Below, one piece after another: positions 12,067-61,970 of a DNA stretch of 64,000 nucleotides (position 1 is the first letter of the stretch; the number at the start of each line of letters is the position of its first letter). The notes under the pieces were generated by a model, which worked only from the letters and a program-made list of their open reading frames with translations, did not search any database and was not told the origin of the DNA. The stretch is from an uncultured cyanobacterium (lineage in GTDB: Bacteria; Cyanobacteriota; Cyanobacteriia; Cyanobacteriales; Cyanobacteriaceae), in assembly GCA_963749915.1 (NCBI GenBank), contig CAVVOP010000008.1, forward strand, positions 864,001 through 928,000. Reading direction: 5' to 3'. The position numbers were made by a program, and so were the translations under genes.

Positions 12067-12747
12067 TCAGGTCAGACCTTTGGTGTCATCTTCGAGTTCC
12101 TCGACCATCCACTCACCACCGACCTTATCCCACTTCTTGACCTTAGCCAGTAAGTAAGCAAAGCAGGTGTTCTCGGGAATCTGAACTTTGCTAGAAGTAG
12201 TTGATGAGGAACTGGCTCCAACGTTCAAAGTGAAGCCCGATGTTCCCAGGGGGGCGCTCACCGAAACGCTGCCGCCAGTAGTCACCCGTGACGCGAGCTC
12301 CGCCTCCATCACGATCCACACGTCGCTCACGATCCGCGCGTCTTTCCCTTCTTCCTTAAGATTATTGCGTGCGACGTCCGCATGCTTGTTAAGCAGTCTT
12401 TTCAACGCGTTGCTGGGTACGCTGAGCTTGATCAGAACCAGGTTGGCTGATTTGGCTGCGCCGCGGCTGAAGGCAACCTGACCACCGGCAGCGGTCAGGT
12501 ACTTGATCCCAACGTTCACTTCCTTGTCGGAGAAGTTGTCCCATTCAATGAGGTAGGGGCCGGATGTCGTGACGTCAACCTTTGCAAGGTTAGCCGGACT
12601 GACGGTTCCTGCAAGGTATAAGTAAGGCGCTTTGCCCAAAGGCGTCTTCTTCTCTCCAAAAGACACAAGGTTGACATCTTCGCAACCACCTCGGAAATAG
12701 CTCTTGCCGGAGTAGACAAATTTGGAGTCAGAGATTTTAACTGTCAT
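12067..12747 (-). CDS. Putative gasdermin-like pore-forming protein (high GC, foreign)
   Basis: Motif order KLSVPSNALKRLL / LKEEGKDARIVSDV / Ser-Gly-rich hairpin / KVQIPENTCFAYLL parallels the gasdermin N-domain. Confidence 0.55.
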   Translation of the reverse strand: MTVKISDSKFVYSGKSYFRGGCEDVNLVSFGEKKTPLGKAPYLYLAGTVSPANLAKVDVTTSGPYLIEWDNFSDKEVNVGIKYLTAAGGQVAFSRGAAKSANLVLIKLSVPSNALKRLLNKHADVARNNLKEEGKDARIVSDVWIVMEAELASRVTTGGSVSVSAPLGTSGFTLNVGASSSSTTSSKVQIPENTCFAYLLAKVKKWDKVGGEWMVEELEDDTKGLT

Positions 12748-13068
12748 GATACTTAACGTGTCTCCATAGAATTCAGATTTTTCAATTGTGCCGGACGTAC
12801 TTCATCGTTAATCAGCACTCTCAGGATATTAACCCCATACAGGATGATATCCCGAAATTTTCTGTATATTCTGTGATAATAGCAAGAAACTTTCTGGGTA
12901 ACATGCTAAATAGTTATACTATCAAGAAATATTCTGGATATCATATTAGGTAGGTCAAAACCTCCTAAAAAATTTCTTATAAATTTGTTTTATTCAATAT
13001 AACTGAAAAACCATTACCGAGATATTTTTCTTAACATATATTTATATCTAGCTTGAAATACAGTTAAA

Positions 13069-13306
13069 AACATAGTCTTTTTGCCTTCGGTTTATCTCAA
13101 AGGCTACTGTTTCCGACCCTAGGTCACTGCGTGGCTGGAACTGGTGAGACAATGACACGACCGCTTTTCTATTATACCCGTTCTGTGGTGCGACTAGGCA
13201 ACACCTTAATTGAAGTCGCTCCGCCGCCATAGTTTAGTTCTACTTGCCTATAGTCTTCGTAACGGCTACGCTCCATTTATTTATTTTTGCCTTGCGCACA
13301 GATCAA
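13069..13306 (+). repeat. 238-bp structured element, copy 1 (inverted copy at 23795-24031)
   Basis: Manual alignment shows near identity with clustered differences; contains hairpins (GCCTT..AAGGC, GACC-CTA-GGTC) and a TATAAT on the opposite strand. Confidence 0.9.
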
Positions 13307-13321
13307 AGTTCACTGTGAAAA

Positions 13322-13654
13322 ATGAGAACGGGTGAAAAGAAGCTGTTCTTTCGTTGGGGGTTTGTTCCCGTGGTTTCTTTCCGTGTTGTTTCTGGTTCTG
13401 CGTTGGCTTGTTCTGCGGTGTCTTGGTGGTTGCGTCCGGGGCGTTCTGGTGGTGGCTTCCGTCTGGTTGCCCGTTTTCCTTCCTTGGCTTTGGCTTCTTT
13501 GTTTGCTCGGCGCTGGGCTGGTGCTTGTGGTTTCTCGGCGGTGGCGGTTCGTCCTTGTCCTGCTGTTCCGGGGTGCTGGGTTGTGTCTGTTCCCGTTGTT
13601 GTTCCTGCGTCCTCGCCCGTTCGTGGGTGGGGTGCTTGGTCGGCTCTTCCCTAG
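13322..13654 (+). CDS. Adenine-free ORF, hypothetical 110-aa protein
   Basis: No A between 13342 and 13652; the only A in 13342-13700 lies in this ORF's TAG stop. Confidence 0.5.
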   Translation: MRTGEKKLFFRWGFVPVVSFRVVSGSALACSAVSWWLRPGRSGGGFRLVARFPSLALASLFARRWAGACGFSAVAVRPCPAVPGCWVVSVPVVVPASSPVRGWGAWSALP

Positions 13655-13947
13655 TGGCTCTGGTGGGGGTTGTTGCCCCTGCCTTCTTTTTTTTGTCGTT
13701 AAACTTTAACTGCCCTTCTGCCTTCTGCCTTCCTGCCTTCTTTAAGATCCCAAGTATATGTGATACATACAATAAATTTAGGGTATGCTAATGCAACCTT
13801 TTCGTACCCTTTGACAGCAAGACTCTTTTTCCCTACAGTTATTTATATAAAAAGTCGATGATTTTTTATTATCAGCAAAACCCCTGAAGTGTAAAATAAC
13901 TACCAAGGGCTTGGTAGCTATCGATTTTAATCTGATTAATTAATATT

Positions 13948-14469
13948 ATGACACAGTTAGCTACTGCCAATGGTGGCTTGATTCAGCCTTTGAATCAGTC
14001 ACTCGATTGTATTATTGAGGCTTTAATTGCTTCTAAGCATAAGGCTTCTACCCGTCTAACTTATCGTCAAAATCTCAAGTATTTTGCTCATTATCTGATT
14101 CATGGGTTCTTAAATAAATGTCAGAAGATAGTTTTACCTGACATCCAAATCAAAGCGGTTATCGGTGAGTTTTTAGGTTTTGAAAAGGTGAGGGCCATCG
14201 CTTACACTGCTCAATATCAATTAGATTTAATTGAGGCTGATTATACTCCCAATAGTATCGGTAAACAGGTCATTCATTTAGCACCGAAGACGGTATCAGC
14301 TTTAAATAATTGGCTATCTTGTTACTCTAATCCTCAACCTGAATCACCCCTGTTTATTAGTCTAGCCAACAATACTAGAGGCAATAGATTAACAGGAAAA
14401 AGTATTTACTGCATTGTCAGAAAATATAATGTACCTAAACCTAATACTGTTACTGTAGGGAAAACATAA
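13948..14469 (+). pseudogene. Tyrosine recombinase/integrase, internally deleted and truncated
   Basis: STRLTYRQNLKYF N-domain is joined directly to ESPLFISL...RLTGKSIYCIVRKY; the catalytic R and HxxR/Y motifs are missing. Confidence 0.7.
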
Positions 14470-14928: not shown

Positions 14929-15375
14929 TTAGGCCGTATAAGTAGAGAAATATGCCTTGGGTTGATATCCCAGTCGTTTATACACAGGAACTCCAGCAGG
15001 TGTAGCATGAAGAATAGTGCGACTCTTCCCAAATTTCTTCTCTGCCTGTGCTAGGCAATGTCTAATTACGGTTTGAGCATAGCCATGATTACGATATTCG
15101 GGTAATGTTGCCACAAACGCTACATAAAATTTCCCCTCGAGCCACAAAACCATAGCAGTGGATACAGGCTTATTCTCTAAGTATCCCACCGTGCCCAATA
15201 CAGTTTTTCCCCAAAATTCTTCTCTTTCTAAAGGTTCACAAAACTGTTCGGGTCGCATCTGATAACTAACTGCATTAATATAACCCACTGCTTTTCTTGT
15301 TTCTTGATTATCAACACAGACACACTCAAGAGTTGGAATTGGTTTGACTGATGGTATAAGTTGATCCGTCGCCAT
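14929..15375 (-). CDS. GNAT acetyltransferase (possibly 5'-truncated)
   Basis: VATLPEYRNHGYAQ motif A; LHATPAGVPVYKRLGY. Confidence 0.8.
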   Translation of the reverse strand: MATDQLIPSVKPIPTLECVCVDNQETRKAVGYINAVSYQMRPEQFCEPLEREEFWGKTVLGTVGYLENKPVSTAMVLWLEGKFYVAFVATLPEYRNHGYAQTVIRHCLAQAEKKFGKSRTILHATPAGVPVYKRLGYQPKAYFSTYTA

Positions 15376-15473
15376 TAGTTCATACTGAAAATATTTATGA
15401 AAAATAAGTTTTTATGTGCTATCTTAGTTTCGTTTGATTTCCGTAAATCTGTATTTAAAGATTTCTGTAAATA

Positions 15474-23794: not shown

Positions 23795-24031
23795 TTGATC
23801 TGTGCGCAAGGCAAAAATAAATAAATGGAGCGTAGCCGTTACGAAGACTATAACTAAGTACAACTAGACTATGGCGGCGAAGCGACTTCAATTAAGGTGT
23901 TGCCTAGTCGCACCACAGAACGGGTATAATAGAAAAGCGGTCGTTCATTATCCCCACAGTTCCAGCCACGCAGTGACCTAGGGTCGGAAACAGTAGCCTT
24001 TGAGATAAACCGAAGGCAAAAAGACTATGTT
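23795..24031 (-). repeat. 238-bp structured element, copy 2
   Basis: Reverse complement of 13069-13306. Confidence 0.9.
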
Positions 24032-24149
24032 CTTTAGGGGTGACAACAACAAAACACTGTAAGCCGCTCTAGTTCTCGCTTATAAGTAGAGAATTAGTAC
24101 ATGCGTTTTGGTGAAGTTTAGTTTCAAATTGGGGTGAAGTGAGTCGAAG

Positions 24150-24320
24150 AACTGTTCGGCTAATGCTTACCAAGCTCCCCGACTCGGTTTGATTTTTGGA
24201 TGCTGTTACCAGCATCACAGGAACAGGCTGGACTCTTCGGATACACCCTCGACAGATTCCCACCTGCCAACTCTCGCGATGAAGAGACCTCCCGCCAACG
24301 CACACCACACGAAAACCGTT
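24150..24320 (-). ncRNA. DGR template-repeat 3' end plus spacer RNA remnant
   Basis: AAC GGT TTT CGT GTG GTG TGC (NGFRVVC, the CLec/FGE VR-type terminus), followed by a GC-rich segment and the hairpin GATGCTG-N4-CAGCATC (24199-24216). Confidence 0.7.
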
Positions 24321-25213
24321 CAGTCTTCGTCTTCCCCGATGTAAGTTACTATTTCTGACCCGAATTCGATCGCCTAAAATGCGGAAGCCAAGGAAGCTAG
24401 CACCGTATTTAGTGGCAAATAGTTGACTCTTGATGGGATGAATTTTTAGTCTGAGTATTGCCAAATACTCTTCTATTGCTATTCTGGCATCGGCGAGAAA
24501 ATCTCGTTCGTCGGCAAATAAAGCGAAATCATCAACGTATCTTACGTATTGAGAAGCTTTGAGAGTTTCTTTGACAAAGTGGTCAAAAGGATTGAGTATG
24601 ACGTTCGACCAGAATTGACTGGTTAAATTGCCTATAGGTATGCCTTTTCGCCTTTGTAAGGGGGTTAGCAAATCATCACCTGGAAAATATTCGATGACGG
24701 GTTCTTGTTCATTACTATTATCGATGATGGTATCAATCAGCCACAAAGTATCAGGACATTTGATTTTACGTCTGATTTGTCGTTTGAGAATTTGATGGTC
24801 GATACTGGGAAAATACTTCTTGATATCGCATTGCAAGACGTAGCGGCTGCGACGAAAAAACTCGATAAATCTTCTCAAAGCTCGATGGGTGACAAATCCC
24901 ACTCGGTTGGCATAAGAATCACGAATGAAAGTACGCTCAAAAATGGGAACGATTATATTACACAGGCCATGGTGAACCACTCTATCTCGGTAGGGAGCGG
25001 CAGAAATCAGACGGCTTTTAGGATCTCTGATATGAAAAGTTCGGTAATTTCCTGGTTGATATGTTTTAGCCGTAAGCTCCTGTTGTAATTTGATTAACTC
25101 CCCTTCTAAGTTGTAGTTGAAGTCTAAAATATTATCTCTAAATCTTTTGCCCAATTGTGCTTTTCTAGCGGCTAAATAGAGGTTATCAAATGTGATAATT
25201 TGGGGGTAGAGAT
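24321..25213 (-). pseudogene. DGR-type reverse transcriptase, truncated at both ends
   Basis: [40 protein letters not shown] and YVRYVDDF motifs; start replaced by the IS1 end; C-terminus fused to the TR. Confidence 0.85.
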
Positions 25214-26166
25214 GGTCGTGCATCAAATAACTGTGGGATAGCTAATTAAGTCATGCCAAGTCCATCTCTGGTCACTCAATCCCGATCTTTGAGCGGCTGT
25301 TGTCCCTAACCGAATATTTTTCCAAATCCAGTTGAAATAGCTGACGACTAACCTTGCCGTTACTTTCGTTTGCTCCCAGACCTTGGCAAATTTATTTTGT
25401 TGCCGATGCCATCTTCCTGTCTGTTGCCGGAGAATTCCATTAGTCCTCTCCAGCCTTTGGTTTCCTTTTTTACTGATCTGGTGCTCTATCTCCTCTGTTA
25501 ATACCCTTTGATAACCCCTTAAGCCATCAGTATTCCAGTTTTGGCATTGGGTTTTTCCTTCTGTGGTCACGAGCATCTCCTCCAGAAGTTGATCCTTCCG
25601 TTTTCCTACACGAGCTGCCAGAATCAAGCCACTATCTTGAGCTAAACTAATTCCTATCCAGCAATCCCCGGCTATTATTTCGTCTGGTTCGCATTGGCAC
25701 TGTTTTGTCTTGGTGCGCGTTCCCTTGCGTCTTACGCCGACGCGGGGTCGCACCGCTTTTCGACAAATGACCACATTTCATCAGCGCTTACTTGTTCTGT
25801 TTCCACTTGTTGAACCTCAGCATTATGTATCATTTGAGCTTTTTGGCTAGCATCCCTAATCAAAGAAACTACGGTGCCGTAAGCCCTGCCACTGATTCGA
25901 CTCACTCCTCTCAGGCTACTGCCTTCAGCATGAGATTGAAGAATGGTATGAACTTCGGCCGGATTGAGATGGCGGTTATAGTAAAGAGTCTCAAAATGTT
26001 CAGGAAAAGTTTTACCACAATGAGGACATTTATAACCCTGGTGTCCTTTCTCAGTTTTGCCATGTTTGTAAGCTTTATGGTGACCGCAGAGAAGACATTT
26101 CATAGAAATAAATAGAATACTACTTTTCTCTCATACTCTCATCCCACAGATTTTTGTTTCACGACC
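25214..26166 (-). mobile_element. IS1-family insertion sequence (InsA 25732-26103, InsB 25223-25774)
   Basis: Zn ribbon CLLCGH...CPHCGK, DEMWSFV and LERTNGILRQ motifs; TIR GGTCGTG(C/A)A(T/A)CAAA at 25214 and 26166. Confidence 0.85.
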
Positions 26167-39217: not shown

Positions 39218-40015
39218 TTAAAGGAGTTTTCGGAAGAGGTTTCGTTCGACCAAAGTTTCAAATTGACGAACCATTCGGGAGGCTATAACTGGATCAACTA
39301 TTAACACTCCCGTTTCCAGGTTGCGTTCATGGGCTGCTTCTGTAAAGTTGGCGGAAGTGACTAAAGTTTTTGTTTTGTCAATTACTACGCACTTAGCATG
39401 AAGGCAGGATTTAGAACCTATTTGTGTAGACAGCGATCGCTGATAGTAAAAGATTTGCGGAGATCGTTTCCCTGACCAGATCTGAGTGTAGAAGTCATGG
39501 ACAAAATCTCGCAGTAGTGATGCGTTAGAGGTTTTGCTACCATAGGGACGAGATATATTAACAAATAATTGGACTTGTAAATGAGGATTTGTATCCATGC
39601 GATCGCCGAGCACCTGAAATATTTCCTGAGTTTTTCGACTTTTGTCAAAAACATAAGTGGCAATCAAAACACTATGTTGAGCAGCCTGAAACAGTTCCCT
39701 GACAACTACCGAAGTGTCTCGGTTTTGGGAACCTAAGAAATCCTCCCCAGTCCAAACTAAATCGATTTTGTCATTAACAGTTTGAGCAGAAGCTCTTTCC
39801 TCTGCTAAAAGTTTCAGAGTGTAGGCGATATGGACTTCAGTCATGGAGAGAGAGGATAGTTTGTTTAACTCCTTCGCTACTTCGTCACATAGGGAACTGG
39901 GAACATAACTGGTTAGATGAATAGGTAAGAAAGGAGTGAGAAGCCTTCCTGACTCAAGAGCAATCGCCAAATTATTTAATGCCGGGTAACTTAATTGGTG
40001 AAAATAAGAAGACAT
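39218..40015 (-). CDS. drmC: DISARM phospholipase D-like protein DrmC
   Basis: LVWTG; HAKCVVID...TSANFTEAA; last gene of the DISARM operon. Confidence 0.9.
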   Translation of the reverse strand: MSSYFHQLSYPALNNLAIALESGRLLTPFLPIHLTSYVPSSLCDEVAKELNKLSSLSMTEVHIAYTLKLLAEERASAQTVNDKIDLVWTGEDFLGSQNRDTSVVVRELFQAAQHSVLIATYVFDKSRKTQEIFQVLGDRMDTNPHLQVQLFVNISRPYGSKTSNASLLRDFVHDFYTQIWSGKRSPQIFYYQRSLSTQIGSKSCLHAKCVVIDKTKTLVTSANFTEAAHERNLETGVLIVDPVIASRMVRQFETLVERNLFRKLL

Positions 40016-41908
40016 TAGGACACAGTATCAGGGAAGAATTCCGCCCCTAACTCCTCAACCGTATCAACGACTAAAGCTCGATCGAGAAATTCATTCCGTC
40101 GTTCACAAGAAGTTTCTGCTATGAGCAAACAGCCATGACAAGCCGAACCATGTAAGTATCTCTCTTCTTGTCCATTAGTAGGTTGATGGCTAGAACAAAC
40201 AGGATCATTGGAGCATAGCCTGCCTATTTCCAAAGCTTTACTCAAATGTTCTTCAATTCTTCTGCCTACTTCTACCAATCCTCCTAATGTTCCCTCTGAA
40301 CCAGATGTTCCCGTGTAAAGTAAGATTCCATAGCCTGTATCATTAGCATAAATTCTTTCTTTAATGGCACTGGGAGCATAACCGCACTCTAAGGGAAACA
40401 GCGGTGATCAGTAAATGAGATAGAGAATGCAACATTATATAAGCTGCACCTGGAAAATTGGCTTTTTCTCTGGATATATTGCGAGAGTCCAACCAGAGAT
40501 TAAAACCATCTGACAACTCCTTAACTCTTTGTTTTACGGGATTTTTGTTCATCCACTCTTCTATTTTCTCGGGACGGAAATTAAGGAATACACCTTCTCC
40601 TTTATTCTCGATCGCTGGAACCCATTTATGCTCAAGATCTTCAAAGTCAAGACTAGCTCTTCTAACGTTGATTGCCAGGTCATCTAATTCACCCTCGATA
40701 TTAGGCATAGCCGCTTCAAAACGAGTAAAACCAACTAAAGCAATTACCTCTCGCAGTCGATGAACTAAGACAATGCGATCGATGAAAGGATACCATTGAG
40801 AATTTTGGTCTTCTATTAGTAAGGCTTGAGCGTCAAAGTTATCATTTTCACTGCCTGAAGTAGCGTTTCTCTCTTCTCCACAGTTGAGTAGAGCTTCTAA
40901 CTCTACCTGTTTGATACTCTTTTCCACAGGAGGTTGTCCACTTTTACGTCGTTGTATTTCCTCCCAAACTTGAGCTAAGGAAAATGATTGTAGGTCAGCA
41001 TACTTAGGCTTTTTTAATGTTTTTCTGACATCATCAATATCTTCTTCGTATTCCAGGTCATCATCGTAAAATTTGTCCAGAGCTGTATTCAATTGGGCAT
41101 GGGGATCTGGAAGAGAAATAACACTGAGAATTTGGGTGAAATAAGCATTACTGGCAGAACGAACTAATAAACGATTGTACTCGGGTTTATCAGTGGGAAT
41201 TGTTTCTCCATCTTGAACTCGATAGGTATGGCAGGGAAATTGTCTTCCTTGTTCACCTAACCAAGGGCGATGTCCTTGACAAATACCTAAAACTTTGGAG
41301 TGTTTAACTTTAGCCTGTGATAAAGGTCGGCGTTTTCCACATTCACATCGAATATAAATATCCTCAAAGTCATTGCCTGAACCTGCCTCATCTAGCCACA
41401 ACTGACGACGACAAGAAGTATTGAAATCATCATGAGCAAATCCATACCATTCAATGTCGTTTAAATGTCCATTGACACAGGCTTGAACGAATCTGACTGG
41501 AACAACTGAGATGTTATTTCCCTCAAACTTGGCACCCCCTTTTACGGCATTGTACCTTAACAAAGGGCGAGTTCGATATTCTTTTACTCCCGTTCTGTAG
41601 GTTTGAGCAACATTGCCTAAGAACCATTGAGGAAAAACATAGGCATCAATCCCAGAAGAAGGGCTGGTGGGATCTGTATTTTTCTGTGGTGGGGTATAAA
41701 ATTTAACATCATCGATAGCCAATACTTGACAAACTTTATGTCTCAATCTATCTTCCCTGATGTATGTTTTCTCGCCCCTCCAGAAACTTAAACCAGATAT
41801 GATGACTGATTTTTCAGGTAAATCCACCATTGACCCTGGTCCAAAGGTAGTCAATAGTTGGCTTTGTCTTAATTCACTATTGGGAATTGATTTTTTGTTT
41901 GTTTTCAT
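40015..41908 (-). CDS. drmB: DISARM DrmB (DUF1998), frameshift near 40380
   Basis: RQSQLLTTFGPG...LHSLSHLLI; C-terminal CSNDPVC...ACHGCLLIAETSCE in another frame. Confidence 0.88.
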
Positions 41909-41929
41909 CGTGAGCTACCTCCGCATTAA

Positions 41930-44900
41930 CTATTTAGTTGATGAATCTTTAATCCACAATTCCACCGTTGGCTCAACGTCCCTTAAACTTCTTTGGGCTT
42001 TGAATTTCTGTTGTTCAAGAGGAGCTTCTTCGGATTTTAGTTCAAAAGCTGATAGCAATAAAGCAGAAACACTATCCACTTCGTTTTTATCGTATTGAAG
42101 TCGTAGTTCTTTATCGGCTCGACTTACCCATGTATCTACTAAATCGTTAATTCTGCCACGCAATTCCTGTCTTAATGTTTCACTTTCTTGACCCGATAAT
42201 TCAGGATTATGGGCTTCCGCACGACGTGAGATAATTTTGATAATGTTTTCTAATTCTTCCCTATGTTGATTCACCTGACTAGCACCAAGAGGCTTGGTCA
42301 TTTTAGCAATACCTAATCGAGCGAGGGCAACCATAACTCCTGCTAAACCTCGATCTAGGGCACGAGGAGAAAAGGGGGTAACGCTGGTGGCTTCTACAGC
42401 ACGATAAAAGCTATTATGCCAACTCTGAAAACGTTCATAATGCGATCGATCTCGGGGACGATGAATATTTAATAATGTGACTACTAACCCCGGACGTTTG
42501 GCATCTCGACCGACACGACTGGTACTCTGGATATATTCGGCGGCGGATTTTGGTTGTCCTAATACCACCATTAAACCGAGACGCACAATATCTAACCCCA
42601 CCGAAATCATGTTAGTAGCTAGGGCAACATCTACTCCGTTCTTTTTTTTATAGATAGGTGGTTTTCGACCTTTTGTAATCTCAAAAGTTGAGGTGAGCTT
42701 ATTTTTGGTTTCGGCTACTTTATCAGTGCTAACACGGGAAGTTAGTTCCTCTGGTTGGTCATCTATTTTTCGATTGTTAAAGTACGGGCTGACAGTTTCT
42801 CCTTGACGAATACGACGAGCGCCATAATTTGTTAACTGAGGGTTGATTTCATCTTCGACAATACGCCGACTACCTCCTAATTCCCTTAGAGAATTAAAAT
42901 ATCCTAATACTGTCATGTAGGGATCTGCTGGATTGGGGTTAATTCTCTGTTCATGGGCTGATTCCCATTCTTTTTGAGCGGTAGCAAGGAGAGCAAGATA
43001 AACTCTTAACAGAATTACTTTGGGACTTCTGCCTTGAGCGGCTACTCCTAAGTAGAGTCTGCCAGAGGATTGATCATTGCATTCATCAGGGAAGATTGTT
43101 TGAGCAAAAAATGAGTCATGACGATCTGAACTAGGAGGTGGAAATATATCTACACGAGGACGATCGAACAGAGCTTGTATTTGTTTTTGGGCTCTTCTGA
43201 CAGTAGCAGTGGAAGCAATTATTTTCGGGCGTATTTTTTTCTCTTCTAATTCTGTCTCAGATAGGCTTGAATTAATTTTTAAACTATTTTTTTCTTCTTC
43301 TGTTAATTCTCTGGTGCAAAGAGAATCGATCGCTGTTTCGTAAAGTCCTACCATTGTACCTAAGGGACCAGAAATTAAATGTAACTCATCTTGAATAATT
43401 AAATCTGGCGGTGGCAAAGGTTCAGATAAAGGCTTACCTCCTCTCGTGCCGTCAGCAGGGCCAAAAAAGCCGATATTTTCTAGATAATGGGTGACTTTCC
43501 CAAATAATGCTCCTGTTTGTCCCACCCAAGGAAGGTTAGCAAATTTATCCACGGTGGCAATTATGAAGCAGGGTAAACGACGATAGATTGTTTCATCTAC
43601 CGCAACTATGGGTAAACAGCGATCTCCTCTAAATGTGCAACGACGACTAGGACAAGTAACTCTTAAATCTTGAGGTTGATCTGGATTTGGTCTTAAAGCA
43701 AAAGAGTCGGGATTGAAAGGTTCACCACACCAAGGACATTTTTCCAAAGGAATGGGAGATGTTTGAGTTTTACCTCTTTGAAAGTCAAGGGTTTTTTTCC
43801 GAGCCGAATAATCATCTTTATCCCCTTTTTTGCCCATCTTATTGGGAGTAGCGGCACTACCTACCCACAAGCCAATCTCAAAGGGATGTTTGCCTAAACG
43901 AATATTTTTCATCCGTTCGATTTCTAAGGCACAGATCAAGCGAGATGCTCTTTCTAACTGATCTAAGGTTAGTAAGCGGAGGGTATAACGCATTAACACC
44001 GTCAACCCAGCCGACTGAATCCCAGGGTAACGAAATCTTCTTAACACAATGGTAAAAGCCGCTAAACCCAAATAGGCTTCCGTTTTACCACCCCCTGTAG
44101 GGAAGAAGAGCAAATCCACAACTTCTCGATCTGCACTGGCAGGGTTTGCCATACCTTGGAGATTTAGCAAAATAAATGCTAACTGGAATGGTCGCCATTG
44201 AGGTGGGTCAAATTCTGTGGGAGCTTTGCCTTGTTCTTGAGCTAATTGTTGACGGCGGGAAAGAGCGATCGCTCTATTTGCTATTTGAAATGCCTCTAAT
44301 ACATCGGGAGCTTCTAAAAGGTTTAAACCTTCCTCAATGCGTTTACCAGCCCTCTGAGCATCATTTAAAAGCTTATGAGCAACATCTTGACACTGTCCTA
44401 CCAATGGTGTTTGTCTTTGTTCTGCGATCCACTGCTCGTAGGCTGTCACCATGGGGCTAATCATAGCTTTGATCGCTTCGGCTGAGGGGGCGGAGGCGAT
44501 CGCTTCCATGCCTAATTCCACATCGGGAGGAGTAAAGGGTGCAACCCTTGGCACTTCGGCAGTAGGTAGCCATGTAGTCGCAATTTTATAACACTTATCT
44601 TCTTGGGCAAAGGAAATTGCTGAGACGTTATGCCCCACCGCAAATTCATAATCATGACGATATTGCAAATTCGCTACTGCTTCATCCCAATCATTGCCAT
44701 TTTCACCGCGATTGTCACAGCGACCAATAAAACCTTCTTTAGATTCTAAAGTCAGATGAGTTTGAAAGGCAAAACTGCAATCAATAGCTTCATCAAGGGA
44801 GAATATCACGATAGTTGACCACAAAGATTGAGATCGAGCGAGTGCCTGGAGGGAAAGAAGCCGAATGAACAGGGCGATTAGTAATAAAGAGTTTTAAACC

Positions 44901-45527
44901 TCTGCTATTAGGGATATTAATTCTTTGTTTTTGTTTATCTGGGGAAAGAGGAATCGTAATTTCTACAGAGTTAGGTTTGCGTTGCCATAAGACTAAATCT
45001 TTCTTGTTAGTTTGATTGTCCGCTATGGCTTCTGTTTTATCCTTATCTCCTGATTCCATATCGCCCCCCTTACTGAGATTTAATTCTAGATTGCCCCCCT
45101 TAGTAAGGGTTGGAGGGATCTGGATCTCATTCTCAGCTTCAACAGAGGTTAGAGAGACATTTTCATCCACCACAAAATAATCACCCCAACATACTTGAGC
45201 TTTTATGTCGCTAACAGTATCCCTCAGAAGGAAACTTAAACCCATAGAAGAAGGAAAAGGTACTTTCTTCGCCGTCACATTCTCTGGTATCGGGTTATCT
45301 TCGGCGGAGAGATTCCCCACTTCCTGCTCTAAATTTTCATCGCCACTATCATCGGATTTTTGTTCTAATTTGGCTCCCAAGGGGGCTAAAAACCCCGTTA
45401 AATACCACTTAGAAGGAGCTTGAGTTAGCTTTTCCGTTGCATATTTATCATCATCAGATGTTGGTCCAATTAAGTCTAATTGCAGAGCCTCTACCAATCT
45501 ATTTCTTACTTGAGCTGATGTTGTCAT
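41930..45527 (-). CDS. drmA: DISARM helicase DrmA, frameshift near 44810
   Basis: PTGGGKTEAY, QDELHL, ATNMISVGLD and QSTSRVGR motifs; N-terminus in ORF 44793-45527. Confidence 0.9.
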
Positions 45528-45587
45528 AAAATTAACTCCTCATCATAGCAATCACTATCTGTCTATTCATCAATTAATCTTTCTCCC

Positions 45588-45872
45588 TTAATGATTGCTA
45601 ATTTCCCCAAGAGCATTATTAATAACCTTTTCTTCTACTCCGTGACGTTTTAAGCTATCAATCAATTCTAGAAGATGGCCCTGTTCTAGTTTCTCCAAAT
45701 CCTGACGTAATCCTTGTCCTATATAAGCTCTAATTAAAGGTTGATAGCCTGAAAATCCTAATAAGGGGGCGATGGTTTTTAATTCCTCCACTACGTCTTC
45801 AGGAATACGGAGGGTAACACTCTTCATGGGGCGATCTTTTTTTAGTCTCTGTTTCAAAGTCTCAATTTTCAT
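45588..45872 (-). CDS. BrnA-like antitoxin
   Basis: SVTLRIPEDVVEELK...GYQPLIRAYI; downstream of BrnT. Confidence 0.75.
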   Translation of the reverse strand: MKIETLKQRLKKDRPMKSVTLRIPEDVVEELKTIAPLLGFSGYQPLIRAYIGQGLRQDLEKLEQGHLLELIDSLKRHGVEEKVINNALGEISNH

Positions 45873-46167
45873 AGTAGTTACGTTCTTGACGGGTTGCTCG
45901 ACGAGCAGAAATAATGCGAATCATGTCGTTTTCTTGTTGAATATGAACGACAAATAAGAGGTAATTATTTTTATCCATGCCGATAACAGCATCTCTGGTT
46001 TCATGATTACGACTTGCATCTACTACCACTAAAAAGGGGTCAAAAAAAGCTTCTGCCGCTCTTTCAAAGGTAATGCCATTATGCTTAATCGGGTTTTGTT
46101 TGGCTTTTTCTTCATTCCAAATAAAGGTTATACCATTGAGGATAAATTTGAGATCCATTCTACTCAA
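45862..46167 (-). CDS. brnT: BrnT toxin
   Basis: WNEEKAKQN..KH.GITFE.A...RIISARRAT. Confidence 0.88.
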   Translation of the reverse strand: MSRMDLKFILNGITFIWNEEKAKQNPIKHNGITFERAAEAFFDPFLVVVDASRNHETRDAVIGMDKNNYLLFVVHIQQENDMIRIISARRATRQERNYYEN

Positions 46168-46287
46168 TTATAGTTAACTTCGTATTGACAATGTCAATAT
46201 TTTATTCTCTCATCAATTTGTCTTTTATCCTTCAAAACAAAGTTGCCAGAGCATTAGCCTAAATAATCTTATATTTCTGATAACGAT

Positions 46288-46695
46288 TTAATTATCTGAG
46301 CTAAACCCTTTACCTTTCTGGGATGATTTACTTGGCTTGATCTGCATTTTGTTATTAGAGGATGATTTGATAGTTTCACTACCTTCCTCTTTTTGATTAT
46401 TTCCCTTAGAAGTTATCGCCAATAAGCCCATAAAGCCAATTGATAATCCTTGAACGGGAGGAAACATCATCAATGGTACTCCGAGAAAAAATGACACGAC
46501 TCCCAGCCAGATTAAATGAAATGGCGATCGATGAAATGCTAAAACCACTACAATACAAATAATATAAAGTAACAAAGAAGGTATAGTGGCAGGAAATACA
46601 CTTTTTCCATTAGCAATAAGATATCTGAGGGATAAAAACTGCCACAATGCCCAAAATAATGCAATTCCCAGAGTGATATTTTCAGCTATTTCCAT
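46288..46695 (-). CDS. Hypothetical membrane protein
   Basis: 3-4 hydrophobic segments. Confidence 0.55.
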   Translation of the reverse strand: MEIAENITLGIALFWALWQFLSLRYLIANGKSVFPATIPSLLLYIICIVVVLAFHRSPFHLIWLGVVSFFLGVPLMMFPPVQGLSIGFMGLLAITSKGNNQKEEGSETIKSSSNNKMQIKPSKSSQKGKGFSSDN

Positions 46696-46733
46696 AGGTA
46701 AAACTTGTTTAGATCATGACCATATAATATAGT

Positions 46734-47154
46734 TTATGGCATTTTTTCATATTCAATTAGATTAGCAATAGCGGTAGTGATTTCCTGTAATTTTTCAGGA
46801 CTTACCATTCCTAGCTTACGGATATAGCGTTGAAAATCTATGCTTCTGGTTTATAAAGCATCGGCTGCCGATTTTTTCCTTAATCCATTCGTGGAATTTG
46901 CTTCGAGTTCAATATGCCAAAGATTATTGACAAAGTAGTCTTTCCAGTCGGTTATCGGCACGACTAATTTAAACGGTAACTTACAAGACTGCTGGCTAAT
47001 TCGTAAAACTACGATTATTTACTACTATGCTCCCCTCTCCCAAAGTTGGGAGAGGGGCTGGGGGTGAGGGCTAAAGAGTTTTCTTGATTTCTGCCCCAAT
47101 GGTAAGATCTAAGTTGACTAGCCAAATTTCAACTCTTTGAGGCTTAATAGTCAT
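46734..47154 (-). pseudogene. PemK/MazF toxin pseudogene interrupted by a REP-like palindrome
   Basis: EIWLVNLD.TIGAEIKKT, then the insertion at ~47030-47072, then LVVPITDW...NGLRKKSAADA...RKLG. Confidence 0.7.
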
Positions 47155-47206
47155 ATATCTCTCCTCTATCAAGGTTAACCCACTCCTGCCATAATTTATC
47201 TTGCTC

Positions 47207-47452
47207 TTAGTGCCCTTGAATAGCTTCTGCTTGTTCTGCTAACATTTGACGATGTTCGGCAAGGGATGTTTTTATAACGTCATATTGAGAGTTAGTCGAT
47301 TCAGAGGAGTCATTATTACTATCATTGATAGTTTTATTTTCAGGCACGATTAAAATTACTTCTACATTCTCCCCTTCTGGTAATGCGGGGAGGTTTATCT
47401 CTAAACGATTTCCTTTTTGTATTGTTGCTGTAAGATAGTGAGTTATTTTCAT
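47207..47452 (-). CDS. Putative antitoxin of the PemK pseudogene
   Basis: LEINLPALPEGENVEVIL; directly upstream of the toxin remnant. Confidence 0.55.
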   Translation of the reverse strand: MKITHYLTATIQKGNRLEINLPALPEGENVEVILIVPENKTINDSNNDSSESTNSQYDVIKTSLAEHRQMLAEQAEAIQGH

Positions 47453-47460
47453 ATTTGGTG

Positions 47461-47793
47461 TTAATCATCAAAGCCTAACCATTCTCTGAGAGCATTTTTC
47501 AGATTTTTTACGTCTTCTGAGTTTAAAATTCCTATTTTTTTGATAATCAGAGTTTCTTTAATGGTAAAAATACCTCTTTTTACTGAACTCTCTACGTTTA
47601 ATCCCGCACTTTGCCAATTTGCTAGAATAAACTCTCCTCTTTGTAAATTTTGAGTGCGACTGCTTAGAGGTACGATAAAGTAGTCTTGAGAAGGATGAGA
47701 AGCACTAACAATAATAGCAGGGCGAACTTTGGTCGTAGATAAATCAGAGAAGGGATATTTAACCAAAATGACATCGTGTTTAGAGTAGCTCAT
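47461..47793 (-). CDS. PemK/MazF-family toxin
   Basis: DVILVKYPFSDLSTTKVRPAIIVS...GLNVES. Confidence 0.85.
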   Translation of the reverse strand: MSYSKHDVILVKYPFSDLSTTKVRPAIIVSASHPSQDYFIVPLSSRTQNLQRGEFILANWQSAGLNVESSVKRGIFTIKETLIIKKIGILNSEDVKNLKNALREWLGFDD

Positions 47794-47983
47794 TGTAAAC
47801 TTCCTCGTCTGGATGCTCCCAAATTTGTTCTAATGATGCTTGACTAGCCTGTAACCAAAATTCTTCTTCCTCCACATCGTTAATTTGTTCATCCTTAGCT
47901 ATCTCACCAACTAAAAATTGTAAGAGGCGAATTTTGTCTAGTTTATTCAGTTGTTTAACGGTAGGAAATAAGTCTTGAATCAC
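47780..47983 (-). CDS. Antitoxin partner of PemK
   Basis: SLEQIWEHPDEEVYNEL C-terminus; overlaps the toxin start. Confidence 0.65.
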   Translation of the reverse strand: MIQDLFPTVKQLNKLDKIRLLQFLVGEIAKDEQINDVEEEEFWLQASQASLEQIWEHPDEEVYNELL

Positions 47984-48094
47984 TTGTAATAATTTCAGGT
48001 GTCATCATAAAGAGGATTTCACATATTATAACAATGTTGTTATTTCTCAACGATTCTCTTTTTGTACTTTTGCGCTGAGATAGTGAGTTGTTTT

Positions 48095-48621
48095 TATAAT
48101 GTTAATAAACGAATAAAACCTGCTTGAGTAAAATGTTTATCAGTAAGCTAGTTTGCATCTAAGTTGACTAGTGAAGAGAGGGAACAGGCAACAGGTAATA
48201 TTTTCAAGCATTTATTATAGTTAATCTCAAAAAATGTAAGTTAAATGCGTCTTAGCTTAGTAAAGGCTTCAGTTATTCCTTCTTGTTTCATAATCACGAA
48301 ACTGATACAGTCAGTCAATCCCCAATCTTTATCCAAACGTTGACAATACAATTTCCACCCTTGTTGAAAAAGCTCATTACTAACAGGAATAACTAATAAA
48401 TCAGATACATTTCTCAAACGATTAATAAAGTTAATTGTCTGCTGTCTAAAATTAGCAGAATTTAAGGCATCAGCTACTTCTAAAAAGACAAAATCAGAGG
48501 TAATAAATTTATAATGTTCTTTCTTTAATTGCTTTCTTATTCTAATAGCAGAGTCATGAAAATTATCGTGATTATTGATTAATGCTAACCAGGCGGCAGT
48601 ATCGACAAAAACTTTTTTCAT
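48095..48621 (-). pseudogene. vapC: VapC/PIN toxin interrupted by a MITE
   Basis: VFVDTAAW...WGLTDCISF...EAFT, MITE, then TDKHFTQAGF. Confidence 0.8.
48146..48257. mobile_element. 112-bp MITE with TA target duplication (IS630-like)
   Basis: TA|AGCTAGTTTGCATCTAA...TTAAATGCGTCTTAGCT|TA; removing it restores the vapC frame (AFTTDKHF). Confidence 0.75.
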
Positions 48622-48846
48622 TTACTCTGTTTCTCTTTTTGGTGTGCCATGAAGATAATGATCGTGTTGATAGGCTAAATCCTTAATACCTGTATCAATT
48701 TGACAGTCTTGAATAATTGAATCCCATTCATCAATATCTTCATTTTTTCTTCTCTGACTACGACTTTTTAAAAGTTGATAAATTTCTTCTAAATCTTCTT
48801 CTGATAAGTAGTCTAATTCGGCTTTGATTAATTCTTTAATGCTCAT
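48622..48846 (-). CDS. VapB-like antitoxin
   Basis: DTGIKDLAYQHDHYLHG C-terminus; adjacent to the PIN gene. Confidence 0.75.
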   Translation of the reverse strand: MSIKELIKAELDYLSEEDLEEIYQLLKSRSQRRKNEDIDEWDSIIQDCQIDTGIKDLAYQHDHYLHGTPKRETE

Positions 48847-49095
48847 TTTTTTACTCTCCTATAATATTAGTTATCAGCTAAAATTTATCTAGTTTACGGT
48901 TGGTGATAAGAGGATGTTTGAAAAGCATCAGACGAACATTTGTGAAGAATTGTATGAGGTACTTAAACCCTGATTTGTTCGTGAATAAATCACTAATCCA
49001 AAATCTAAAATCTAAAATCCAAAATAAAACACCTGTTAATTAAGTACTTCTCAAAAACCTCTAAGTCGTTATTTGTTTATGTTAGCTCTAATTTC

Positions 49096-52000
49096 CTATG
49101 GCTCATTCCCTGTTCCCAAAGAAAGCTCTGTTTGCTCGCCACTCACTTTCGTTTTCTTCTTCTTAGGCTTCCTCGTAGTTTTTTTCTTGGGTTTACTGTC
49201 ATCTCCACCAACTCCCCTTAAGGTTTCTTCCTCAGCCCTCTGTTGATTTAACTCTAATAATCTGGCTAAGACTTCATCATGGGTGGTTTCATGCCAACGG
49301 TAACGCCACGGTAGTTTACGTTTACCTGTGCGCACCATACCATCAAAATTCATGGCTTCGTCGGCTGTGTCAAAGAAGTAGTCACCTGTGGCAATCCTTT
49401 CCTGTGCTTCTGTGGGTAACTCGGTATCGTCTTCAATGTCAAGGTAGTCGAGGGCGAATCCGCAGGTGGTGTCGATGTCATCCCAACCGTAAGCCTTTAA
49501 TACTGATTTATCCATTTCGTCATGTAATTCCCGCAGTTTAATTATCTCCTCATCGGTTTCGTGGGGGTTATGAAAACGGTTATAGGTGTCCGTTAAGCCT
49601 TGATTATTCCGTACCATTAATTCGGCTCGATATTCATAGTAGGTTTTACCGATTTCCTCTAATTCAGCTTCACTTCTGGCTTGTCTGCCATCAAAGGTAT
49701 TATCACCCTCACCCCTAACCCCTCTCCCATCGAGGGCATTGTCACCCTCACCCCTAACCCCTCTCCCATCGAGGGCGAGGGGAATATTATCAGACTCCCT
49801 TCCACCCTTGTGGGGGAAGGGCTGGGGATGGGGGGTATTAAGAGGATAGGGAAAAGGGAAGGTTTCAAAGCAGTCTGATAGGAGTATAACGTAAGTCTAT
49901 CTTCTAGTGATGAACCAAAAAATCTAGCCCATACTTCATGAATCTTGATTGAAGGACAGCAAAAGCTGAATAATTGTCTAATGGAAATACATATTAAAGT
50001 ATTAGAAAAAACCAGTTTTAACAGGTAGAAAAGTAAAGGATAAGTATTGTGTACTAAAACAGACATAACTAAAACACGATCGAGGGGTGCGATCGCCTTT
50101 TTCAATCCTGGTCTTTTTTCCGCATATTGCCACCAACGAACTCTTAAAGCATCTCTTTTTTGTTTATCTCTATCTGGCTTAACCTTTTCTTTTATAATAG
50201 CCATCAAATCAGGATAATCTCGCCAACATTCTTCCTCTGGGCGATCAAAAAAGTCAATAGCATAACGATAGTGACTATGATCGGGATTGCTATTAACTTC
50301 CTCACCGCCAATATAAGGAAAAATCACTTCTGCATTCTTGGGATTTTGCTCAATTAAACGGTGCATCTCAGCGATAGGAGTAGCATCGGGGTTACTATCA
50401 TCAAAAGTAAAACCCATCCCTAAAACAATGCTACCTTGAAAACTCTTATTCTGATTGGCTTTTAACTTTTCAGGATCTTCATTTCCCCCTGCATGAAATA
50501 GGAAAGCCGTGATTTTATCAGTTTCTCGTCCACCAATGGTTTTTCTGCCCTGATAGTCGCCTTTAAAGACATTAACCACACTGACAACAACTGCCGCCGC
50601 CCCTTGCCATTTCACTCGTTTATCGGCGTTGTATATAGTTGCACCGTTATTACAAATAAACCTTAACCCCGTAGTGCGTGTATCCCCTTGAGCGATGGTA
50701 TTAGTAGCAATTAGTCCAAAAGTACCATGCTGGCGAATGATCGTAAAAGCCCGACGGAAGAAATGGGCTACTAAATCAGAGTTACCATGAGCTTCAGGAT
50801 GAACAATTTTCAGCCAATCGAGATACCCTTCAGGATTGCTGTTAATGGTAGTATTTTTACCAGCAAAGGGAGGATTACCAATAATGGCATCAAAACCCGG
50901 ATTATCTCGCTCAAACACCTCTGGAAACTCCAATTCCCAATTAAAAGGAGTAATAGGCTTCTCTGTCTGACGGAGACTATTAGCAATGTTGTAAACGGGA
51001 TGATCAATTTCACCCTCACCCCTAACCCCTCTCCCATCAAAGGCGAGGGGAATCTCTGACTCCCTTCCCTCCTTGTGGGGGAAGGGCTGGGGATGGGGGG
51101 TATTCATTGATTGTTCACCCTCTTGGGGTAAAGACTGAGAATGAGGGGAAAAAGATAATTGAGATGCTCTCCAATGACGCACCACTTCGGCATATTCGCT
51201 TAACTTCTCCTCCCTTTCTTTTGTCTTGCTACCAGAGAAAAATGCCGCTACTTTCACATCACCGATTAATCGAGCCTCTTCTAACTGCATTTCCGCCTGT
51301 CGCCACTGCTGTAACTTAATCTCTGCATCCTCATCGGTTTGAGTATCTACCGATTGAATTTCATCTCGATAGGATTTAGCTTTATCTATTTTCTCCTTAA
51401 GCAACTTCATTAGCGGTAAATCTTGAGTACTATCCTTACCAAAAGAACCAATTTCCGCCCTGGTTAAACCGACAAGGGAATCCCCGCATTTAAGAGCATG
51501 ATCGACAAAAGTAAAGGGCAAATCTTTGGCTAAAGTGACTAACCAAAGGGATAACTTAGCTAGATTGACAGCAAAAGGATTTTTATCCACCCCATATAAA
51601 CACCGTTGAGCCACTAATCGTCGGGCATAAAGTAACGGCTCGATATTTTGAGGGATCTCCCTTCCACCTTTGTGGGGGTGGAGATGGGGGGTAATATCAG
51701 ACTCCCTTCTACCCTTTTGAGGAAAAGGTTGGGAGGTATTTAATGCTGTCCCTCTCCCATCGAGGGCGAGGGGAGCAATAGTAGAAGAAGTTAAGCTATT
51801 TTTAATAATTTGTAAGGCTTGAGGTAAGTCTTGCTCTACTCTCTCACTGGGTATTCTGACAAAACGAAGTCCTAGTGACTCCAAAAGTTCTTGACGTTGC
51901 CTATCTAAATCCTTTTGAGCTTCATGAATGCCACCGTCAATCTCTACAATTAACCTTTGTTCAGCACAGAAAAAATCAACTACAAAATTACCAATAGGTT

Positions 52001-54269
52001 GCTGACGACGAAACTTTAACCCTTCTAATTTACGCTCTCGTAATGATTGCCACATAATAGCTTCACTAGGTGTTGGTTGTTTTCTAAAATCCCTAGCTAC
52101 CTCAATCATCTTCTTTCTTAACGTCTCAGGAATCTCCCAATAATCTTGACTACCGACTCCCCTCTCCTTTGATAGGAGAGGGGCTGGGGGTGAGGATGAC
52201 ATTCCCTTCTCCTTTGATAAGGTAGAGTTAAGAGTTGAAGCTGATTCCAAACCATGATAATCCCACGCCTCCACCAAGTTGTCTGCCAACTGCCGACAGG
52301 CTTCCACTAAGAATGCCGCCGAACCCATTGCCAAATCACAAATCTTCAATGATAAAATCTGCTCTGGAGTAGGATGTTCTCCCAACTGCTCAAAAATAGG
52401 TCTTAAAGTGTTTTCAACTATCGGCTGTGTTAACTTTCGGGGAGTGTAATGAGAACCTGTGCGACGACGCTCTTCCCCCGGTTGTAAATACAAACTGCCT
52501 TTGGGCAAGAGATTAGGGGTTCGTTCTGATACTTTCCGATCTAATGCCGCCACGATTTCTTCAATGGTTTCTGCTGACTTAAGAGCCTTGAGACTGTTAC
52601 CCTTAAGCTCGCATTCAGCCCAATCCTTAAGTAATTTGTCTCTATCACCTGCCTTCGCCTCTAATAAAGCCTGTACATCTACCACAACTGTTGTCGATAT
52701 TTTTGAACCCTTGGGCTTACTTTTCACGCCAATAGAAGGATTAACCGCCACTTCGACTTCGTAACCCATGATGGCTTCATAAACTGAACCGATTTGCTCT
52801 ACATCCAAGGCTCGATAGGACAAACGCTCACCATCCAACATTAATAACTTATCTAAGAGGCGATAAATTACCCCGTCAGAAATCCGAGGAATATTGGGTT
52901 GATAATTTTGGATTTTACTCCCTTCCACCCTCGTGGGGGAAGGGTTGGGGATGGGGGGGTTCAATGTCTTATCTCCCTCACCCCTTGCCCCTCTCCCATC
53001 AAAGGCGAGGGGAATATTAGTTCTACCCTCAAGGAAGGGATATTCATCGGGGTCAAATAATTGTCCATGACGGGCGGGTAAATATTCTGGTAAAGCCCCA
53101 CCGCCATCATAAACTAAACGGAAAAGACTTAAGATCCATGCCCAAGCTCCATAACGCATATCCATTGTATCGGGATAGTTACTCATATCCTCTCGCAATC
53201 GCTCATATAAGCCTGAGACAGAGTAGTTTTGTTGATAAATAGCATCATCAGGCATTAAACCCTCATCTTCTGCGTAGAGAAGGAATACCAACCGCATCAG
53301 AGTTGTAATTAATCCTCCGTATATGTGCTTTGCTCCCTCTTTATATATTTCCTCCTTTTTAAGTGGAGTTAGAGGGGATTTATTCTCATCAAGGGCGAGA
53401 TTACCCTCACCCCTTGCCCCTCTCCCATTAAGGGCGAGGGGAGCAAATAGTGAGCCATCACTAGCGGCATTAGCCGATTGAAAACCTCGTAATAATTCCC
53501 ACAGGGCATCTAATACCTGATCTGCTAACTTCGTCGATACTTCCGCTTGATAATCCCGACTGCTACTGAGAATTCTACCCAGACGGCGATCGCTTTGTAC
53601 CTCAAATAATCGAGCCGAGCCAATTAACATCTGTAATGCACCCAGAATCGATCGTCCTGCCACTTCTGTCATGGCTTGAACAGGAAAGGTTAAATGTCCC
53701 GAAGATTCGCCACGGGGTGCATAAACTAAGCGAATTTCCGTGCCATTAGTTAATAACCCGATGGGGATTTGAGTTTCTCGTAATAATCGTTCAAATTTTG
53801 CTTGAATAGTTGCCTTCCATCCGTTACCCTTCTCATTATCAGGAGGATATACCTCATCCAGAGATAAACCTGCCTCCACCGTTTTAACTAATAATACCCA
53901 TTCCCCACCATCAGGATCTGCCACTCCATAAGTTGGCTTTAATATTTCGCCATAGTCAGGTAATGGTACTTCTAATTCTACAGGTAATGGTTTTTGTCCT
54001 GGAGTTCCCACCAAATCCTCTGGCAACCAATCCAAAACTTTTTCGGCGAAGATGGCAAAGTCTTCAATCCAGGGTTTACCTTCCTCTATTCTTCCTGTTA
54101 CCGCAGATGTAGAGACTATTTCCGTCAATTTTTGTTGCACGGCGATCGCTTCGGAACGATTCACAAAGGCTTGATGCTTAACTAATGCCAGAGGAGATAC
54201 CACTAATCCCACTGGCTGTAATAAACCAAGCCATTCTTTATGTTGCCAAAGTTCTGGATCTGTTTTCAT
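49096..54269 (-). CDS. drmMI: DISARM class I N6-adenine methyltransferase DrmMI, with inserted DUF559 domain; frameshifts near 49.6-50.1 kb
   Basis: GSHYTP, DLAMGSAAFL and IIGNPPF motifs; C-terminus in ORF 49096-49617; lies between drmD and drmA. Confidence 0.85.
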
Positions 54270-54279
54270 CTCTTACCTC

Positions 54280-60655: not shown

Positions 60656-60661
60656 AAGTTA

Positions 60662-61924: not shown

Positions 61925-61970
61925 TGTTTTTTTATTGATTTTTTAATAATAAAAAAAAATAAAATATTAT

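Follow-up and report, generated by a model that had tools for sequence, protein, structure and literature searches.

What could remove one base from almost an entire gene, and is the removal real? The locus that raises this question lies in a stretch of 64,000 nucleotides from an uncultured cyanobacterium (the window), where the initial annotation had described 311 consecutive bases free of adenine (A), with the only A in the stop codon. Base counts showed this description to be exact. The plus strand contains no A over 311 nt at 13342-13652 (127 T, 109 G and 75 C), and the sole A in 13342-13700 is position 13653, within the TAG stop. The next A-free runs in the window measure 47 nt (13654-13700, adjoining the first) and 34 nt, and the longest T-free run is 33 nt. 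At the A frequency of the window, a 311-nt run has a chance of about 1e-48; were A as low as 20%, the chance would still be only about 1e-30.

An adenine-free gene and its transcript

The run is no simple repeat, as the annotation had held, because TRF gave just two 2-copy 13-15-mers inside it. A low-complexity assembly artefact, the objection that the annotation itself had foreseen, was excluded because three further full copies of the gene, with substitutions, lie on other contigs of the 4.69-Mb genome (G000) and because contigs of public DNA runs also contain the A-free stretch. The genome thus holds four full copies of the gene, together with fragments on contigs C8 and C9. When the runs without A or without T in this genome are ranked by length, the top five all come from this element (contigs C13, C23, C8 and C7). 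A different A-free stretch of 74 nt is present in two copies (G000:C12 13869-13942 and C15 15914-15987).

The start of the gene had been misplaced. The 110-aa ORF reported at 13322-13654 contains 10 A among its first 20 nt, and its ATG at 13322 was ruled out as a start, because the copy on C13 does not keep it in frame and because it falls within an arm of the upstream hairpin described below. Five of the seven other close homologs (P0004-P0008) start near GTG 13370. The A-free gene probably starts at this GTG and encodes 94 aa (Table 1). The reading frame and the TAG were kept in all four full G000 copies. In the annotated frame pN/pS was below 1 in 17 of 17 pairs (range 0.07-0.79); the +2 frame exceeded it in every pair and the +1 frame in 16. 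The lowest value was that of the G222/G205 pair (34 silent and 6 replacement changes), whereas copies within G000 came down only to 0.5-0.7. Frames +1 and +2, near or above a pN/pS of 1 and devoid of Pfam matches, were rejected as alternatives, and an antisense frame of 163 aa had no Pfam match either. Homologs with a conserved frame, purifying selection (dN/dS below 1 in every pair) and the loss of A at silent sites agree with the earlier claim of a real, conserved gene selected against A.

The 94-aa protein (computed pI 11.9) is limited to Val, Ala, Ser, Gly, Arg, Pro, Leu, Trp, Phe and Cys; codons for Lys, Glu, Gln, Asp, Asn, His, Tyr, Ile, Met and Thr are missing from the A-free gene. Its structure model (pLDDT 89, pTM 0.80) has a small alpha/beta fold. 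Fold searches against solved and viral structures gave a best Z of 5.8 and no E below 0.001, and LAGLIDADG-, RRM- and PulL-like folds were discarded as background-level matches. Searches of Pfam, NCBIfam, PADLOC and PDB sequences, which also served to look for a known anti-CRISPR or anti-defence inhibitor, gave no match. ESM Atlas gave no usable match for the 94-aa protein, and an A-richer homolog led to unnamed clusters. The modelled product is probably a small basic protein binding nucleic acid. An A-rich homolog with ordinary amino acids aligns with it (probability 94%, E 9e-8); as such homologs exist, the protein fold does not require the ten-residue alphabet.

A profile search returned 48 representatives at 50% identity among 1.84 billion, some of them low-complexity or fused. 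Family matches were present in 15 of 401 genomes of the phylum, some being fusions or A-rich homologs. The named relatives are cyanobacterial, apart from one labelled Gammaproteobacteria, and a partly A-poor relative lies in a phage-like contig (L105). A tblastn search of plasmids with the low-complexity filter on gave no family match, and locus L009 was dropped as a false match. A 150-nt A-free run occurs in 53 of 201 phylum genomes, a figure that is no gene count because many of the 30 returned loci are simple repeats. One protein of 4561 aa (P0009) has 60 matches to the family profile, possibly a repeat artefact.

A second A-free gene family adjoins the 94-aa family gene or is fused to it, and a third is present in genomes G027, G205 and G162. 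The motif G(F)SGSR...GCARGVD of the partner gene resembles IAGSR...GTARGAD of the YAcAr gene on a Microcystis plasmid. The partner shares this motif likeness with the SLOG superfamily (YAcAr, DprA) but had no significant Pfam, PDB or profile match, two of the underlying alignments each containing one row that is or may be out of frame, which weakens these searches; the SLOG label is a lead only. Where the partner gene lies on this plasmid, the PLSDB table lists no feature.

The depletion goes beyond the codons. At fourfold sites, A was found at 10 of 1013 positions over 16 genes (0 of 74 in this gene), compared to 26% in window genes. The leaders of the 16 units contain 24 A in 400 nt, mostly from loci L049 and L080, compared to 39% A in host genes, and their 3' ends contain 7 A in 480 nt. 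A run of G usually serves as the ribosome site. Of the 16 units, 15 stop with TAG (TAG:TGA 15:1), compared to 21% TAG in the host. GA was not specially avoided at these loci, although the preference for TAG over TGA would agree with such a bias. In all eight units checked, A content was 17-25% in the hairpin zone, 1-5% in the unit and 21-30% downstream, the low-A zone spanning from the hairpin base to the hairpin-plus-T terminator. The purge acts on nucleic acid and spans leader, ribosome site, GTG, TAG and terminator. A before G in the mRNA was the one context spared; all other A contexts were purged, which argues for an agent reading A as such. The predicted mRNA is about 355 nt long with one adenine.

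Table 1. Position, strand and basis of the features assigned at the A-free locus (window coordinates).
Feature	Position	Strand	Basis
Frpo-like hairpin, candidate ssDNA promoter, on the template strand	13164-13339	-	folds and comparison of 10 loci
Candidate -10, TATAAT; first T paired, rest bulged	13171-13176	-	fold; hexamer alignment
Candidate -35, TTGCCT; paired with the complement of 13287-13292	13196-13201	-	fold
A-free leader; GGGGG (13356-13360) replaces the AGGAGG ribosome site	13342-13369	+	sequence
94-aa gene (probable start), GTG...TAG	13370-13654	+	frame conservation, model; no Pfam, NCBIfam or PADLOC family
Intrinsic terminator, GC stem and T run; A resumes directly after	13662-13700	+	same ending in 8 of 8 units checked
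Truncated copy of the left part of the hairpin, without the gene	23795-24034	-	95% to 13066-13306

Metatranscriptome contigs cover the gene: one contig of X16 spans 13340-13693, X19 covers the same span in pieces and X20 covers 13502-13639. These RNA-run contigs do not extend over 13210-13311, which is crossed by a DNA contig. The X16 and X19 contigs run about 14 unaligned nt past 13340, to about 20 nt upstream of the predicted start. As such contigs give neither strand nor transcript end, may be DNA and may all belong to one campaign, they are a weak hint of transcription of the gene in RNA libraries. To the left of the hairpin, where the TATAAT would point in dsDNA, 12955-13107 is covered by RNA-library contigs of high depth (up to about 1000 when summed); as this stretch is repeated in the genome, they may derive from another copy and from either strand.

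A candidate single-stranded-DNA promoter and its mobile context

Passages of PMC9849209 and PMC11541004 describe the Frpo design, in which the transferred strand is the template and a hairpin reconstitutes the promoter boxes. The hairpin in front of the A-free gene, which the annotation had missed, has a comparable layout. At its base, 13164-13170 and 13176-13184 form a stem with the complements of 13334-13339 and 13325-13333. The TATAAT faces left in dsDNA and so away from the gene, whereas folding turns it towards the gene; its bulge would create a fork-junction geometry. Positions A2 and T6 of the hexamer were invariant in nine of nine aligned hairpins, at loci that had been chosen by the motif. 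The linear -35/-10 spacing is off consensus (19 nt here, 15 nt at L109). L109, a Microcystis plasmid locus that was not used to derive the motif, has TTGACA in a perfect duplex and TATAAT unpaired.

Fold energy compared to shuffles was unexceptional here (z -1.25; -6.3 in G201 and -4.3 in G147), so the support for the hairpin is comparative. The hairpin motif was found at 10 of 23 non-repeat A-poor segments, from which it had been derived, compared to 2.7% of random windows. All 10 motif loci have a basal stem that finishes 35-47 nt short of the start codon, although it has just 2-3 bp at two of them. The stem beside the box varies between loci, mean pairing being 5.7 nt with the own partner and 3.2 nt with those of other loci; another stem test gave 6.25 (own) compared to 5.2 (cross) of 8, and both differences are modest. 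The C13 copy has a double change from A:T to G:C. Rfam returned no match for the interval 12700-14000. Counting from the -10, transcription would start at about 13342-13346, which coincides with the onset of the A-free run. Taken together, the hairpin is quite probably active as a promoter.

Directly upstream of some A-free genes there is a TATAAT of the usual kind on the sense strand, L049 and L080 have A-containing leaders, and genes with 29% and 43% A also stand behind hairpins of this type. On Microcystis plasmid p1 (L109), two like hairpins (12640-12960 and 15200-15470) stand before A-rich DUF4326 and YAcAr-SLOG genes, on one strand together with zincin-like and methyltransferase genes.

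The surrounding window segment, with Gp157, ParA, a deleted recombinase and insertion sequences, has the look of plasmid DNA that decayed within the chromosome. The only leading-type markers in the window itself are Gp157 and ParA. The contigs that carry relatives are small and also encode ParA, CyRepA1-like replicases, ArdA, SSB, DdrB, Rad52 and TrwB/HerA-like ATPases (the ATPase matches in G010, G235 and G147 being below the cut-off). ArdA, SSB, DdrB, Gp157 or Rad52 were co-oriented with the family gene of the A-free unit in 7 of 10 marker-bearing genomes. In the other three (G286, G235 and G147) the orientation was opposite to ArdA/DdrB; two of these are the most A-containing.

The locus resembles Frpo/ssi of F and ColIb-P9 in its long upstream hairpin and in the -35/-10 boxes on the template strand, and its relatives resemble the leading regions of these plasmids in co-oriented ArdA, SSB and ssDNA-annealing genes. 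The likeness to Frpo is architectural, the comparison being one of design and not of sequence, and the hairpin promoter itself would by this analogy be a further case of a known design. It differs in the A-free message, and in that no Pfam relaxase or oriT was found here (the scans covered 244 of 283 ORFs in one set and 120 of 206 in another); a candidate relaxase gave a model with a pLDDT of 45. As no relaxase was found, the term "leading region" denotes a likeness only. On balance we favour entry into the new cell as ssDNA, for which natural transformation is another possible source.

Three further observations concern this mobile DNA. YdjM, SNase, a TrwB/HerA-like ATPase and a membrane-fusion protein like DevB recur together as a module at L055-L058, L047, L049, L060 and L063, and might be an unrecognised transfer system of plasmids in which no relaxase is recognised. 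Directly left of the hairpin, 12067-12747 (-) holds a GC-rich gene of 226 aa, single-copy in the genome, which Pfam matches only weakly to gasdermin (E 0.003, short of the cut-off). At 39218-57540 (-) there is a DISARM class I-like locus (DrmD, DrmMI, DrmA, DrmB and DrmC), broken by PemK, PIN and BrnT toxin-antitoxin genes.

Candidate causes of the adenine loss

The A-free unit is real and selected. We propose that plasmid-derived mobile DNA carries here a transcription unit complete with hairpin promoter, leader, 94-aa gene and terminator. The element would enter the cell as ssDNA, the template strand would fold and offer a -35 duplex and a pre-melted -10, and host RNA polymerase would transcribe the single-adenine mRNA from the folded strand. 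A would have been removed from the RNA so that the message stays translatable during an adenine-directed RNA attack by the host, the most plausible attackers being cOA-activated Csx1/Csm6-type RNases of type III CRISPR. Resistance to RNase E would be a side benefit. Our leading, though tentative, reading is thus of an early gene of incoming plasmid DNA with an mRNA made to withstand RNases that attack at adenine, for instance Csx1/Csm6; with the same reserve, the attacking enzyme may be a defence RNase of this kind. The 94-aa protein would help in establishment or counter-defence together with the second, often fused, A-free protein, a role that we regard as speculative.

Two results favour selection on RNA. 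The template strand retains T where it is single-stranded but untranscribed: 109 of 546 unpaired hairpin bases are T (20%), and T makes up 28% downstream of the terminator. Moreover, as the same hairpin type stands before A-rich Microcystis plasmid genes, ssDNA transcription needs no lack of A. A suitable specificity is reported in PMC7694759, where Csx1 of P. furiosus is adenosine-specific.

The PemK/MazF and HEPN genes that the annotation had listed are present in the window (PemK at 47464-47793, two CARF-HEPN Csx1/Csm6 genes at 60665-63479 (-)), and a Cas10 palm domain lies 4.6 kb past its end. Many of these genomes carry such systems, so that Csx1/Csm6 genes near the unit are an opportunity and not evidence. 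A Cas10 palm match over the cut-off was obtained in 6 of 10 carriers, a count that has no baseline and comes from a family that also matches in E. coli. The local gene order (58535-63479 (-) and G000:C8:932628-939556) is a WYL/AAA protein, two Csx1/Csm6 genes, then Cas10 and a 37-repeat array; in G010, similar genes adjoin its A-free unit. CRISPR self-targeting was rejected, as none of 50 crudely extracted spacers matched the island or related loci.

An extension of this reading takes in both message and template. In such three-letter units of mobile elements the hairpin-driven A-free mRNA and the T-free template might both be blind spots of type III CRISPR collateral cleavage, in which Csx1/Csm6 would cut RNA at A and the Cas10 HD domain would cut ssDNA at T, and the ten-residue-alphabet products would be first-minute inhibitors of this response; we hold this to be doubtful.

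Selection could have acted on the DNA template alone, a T-free strand evading thymine-directed ssDNA nucleases or modifiers until it is transcribed (Cmr HD, Cas3, or DarT-type toxins, which are motif-specific). The promoter design does imply a single-stranded template. According to passages of PMC4762430, T. maritima Cmr cleaves ssDNA after every T and spares a T-free substrate, and Cas3 likewise prefers T. However, the T persisting in unpaired hairpin and downstream DNA of the same strand weakens this escape, which the annotation had also proposed. The residual T is not clearly at the poorly cut TC step (G precedes A in 41 of 133 cases compared to a 35% background; 18 of 38 in coding sequence), and units behind ordinary promoters are A-free as well. 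We consider selection on the DNA unlikely.

Stability of the message without any attack is rather improbable as the cause. Here, the promoter would be active for minutes and an RNase E-resistant mRNA would prolong expression. RNase E of cyanobacteria favours A at -3/-4 and U at +2 (passages of PMC8682795), leading-gene expression is transient (passages of PMC9849209), and the RNA-library contigs that contain the unit point weakly in the same direction. Against this, A-rich genes stand behind the same hairpin type, ten amino acids would be a high price for a weak RNase E motif, and the phage-like contig carries a partly A-poor relative.

We give little credence to an economy of nucleotides or tRNAs, that is, transcription nearly without ATP or translation without tRNAs reading A-containing codons, although a transcript with one A and without the codons of ten residue types would suit it. 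The agents would be ATP-depleting or ATP-deaminating defences and anticodon nucleases. An attack on tRNA leaves the A-free leaders and 3' ends unexplained, and translation still requires ATP, which is consumed in tRNA charging.

The physics of ssDNA transcription is a very unlikely cause. A lack of T would keep the template unstructured or weaken the RNA:DNA hybrid, and the template fold was indeed weak (-0.047 kcal/mol/nt, compared to -0.083 ± 0.018 in 120 host pieces and -0.145 ± 0.021 in 42 GC-matched pieces). But the hybrid was stronger than that of host genes (-1.49 vs. -1.29), net release is no easier, and the same hairpins also stand before A-rich genes. If unfolding the template were the aim, a message lacking C would do so better and retain more amino acids.

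Mutational erosion of the DGR type, another suggestion of the annotation, is barely credible. An adenine-mutagenic RT would recopy the transcript onto the gene, which would give start-to-terminator borders. A truncated RT at 24069-25226 (-), with DGR-like motifs and a best NCBIfam match below the cut-off, adjoins the second hairpin copy, and an RT fragment with an FGE-sulfatase gene is present on C23. Silent transversions were somewhat raised in the A-free genes (GT 0.56, CG 0.52 and CT 0.64, compared to 0.32, 0.34 and 0.46), which may be saturation. Like DGR variable repeats, the locus has a strand-specific loss of A and a DGR-like RT nearby. It differs in that whole genes of up to about 1 kb are affected, in purifying selection instead of diversification and in the template repeat, of which none was found in G000 (15 isolated 40-mer chance matches with 18-22 A). 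With the query used, the RT was found in 1 of 10 other carriers, G286, where it is 76% identical to the window RT and on the same contig as the A-free units; this genome has one of the most A-containing copies. The window RT is cut at its C-terminus where the second hairpin copy starts, with an IS1 just upstream.

Avoidance of short target sites fits poorly. Mobile DNA can lose the motifs of toxin RNases. Invaders also lose restriction sites recognised by their hosts (passages of PMC13478746). The A-free locus shares with these cases that mobile DNA drops what a host enzyme recognises, but here what is lost is not a motif of 3-8 nt but a whole base from one strand, throughout the transcript, and ten amino acids are given up for it. 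For MazF-type ACA cutters alone, which the annotation had put forward, as for restriction enzymes, loss of the motif would suffice. Avoidance of UV dimers was dismissed, as purine-flanked template T is also gone and the residual T mostly follows C (G after A in the mRNA, 73 of 133).

Implications for mobile DNA in cyanobacteria

The adenine-free transcript fits no family found, and no description of one was found in the literature searched, which leaves most subscription papers outside. The word "adenine" occurs 0 times in the main-text parts seen of PMC11541004 and of PMC13478746, which examined the composition of leading regions in 2026. This family could be among the uncharacterised leading-region families tabulated in PMC11541004.

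To these accounts the locus contributes a protein family, sharp start-to-terminator borders and a conserved promoter geometry. It also offers natural, folded proteins under purifying selection that are made from ten amino acids, their RNA being barred from adenine. The hairpins mark candidate ssDNA promoters in cyanobacterial plasmids with unrecognised transfer machinery. If the cause is the specificity of a host RNase, A-free runs would flag counter-defence genes that annotation has missed.
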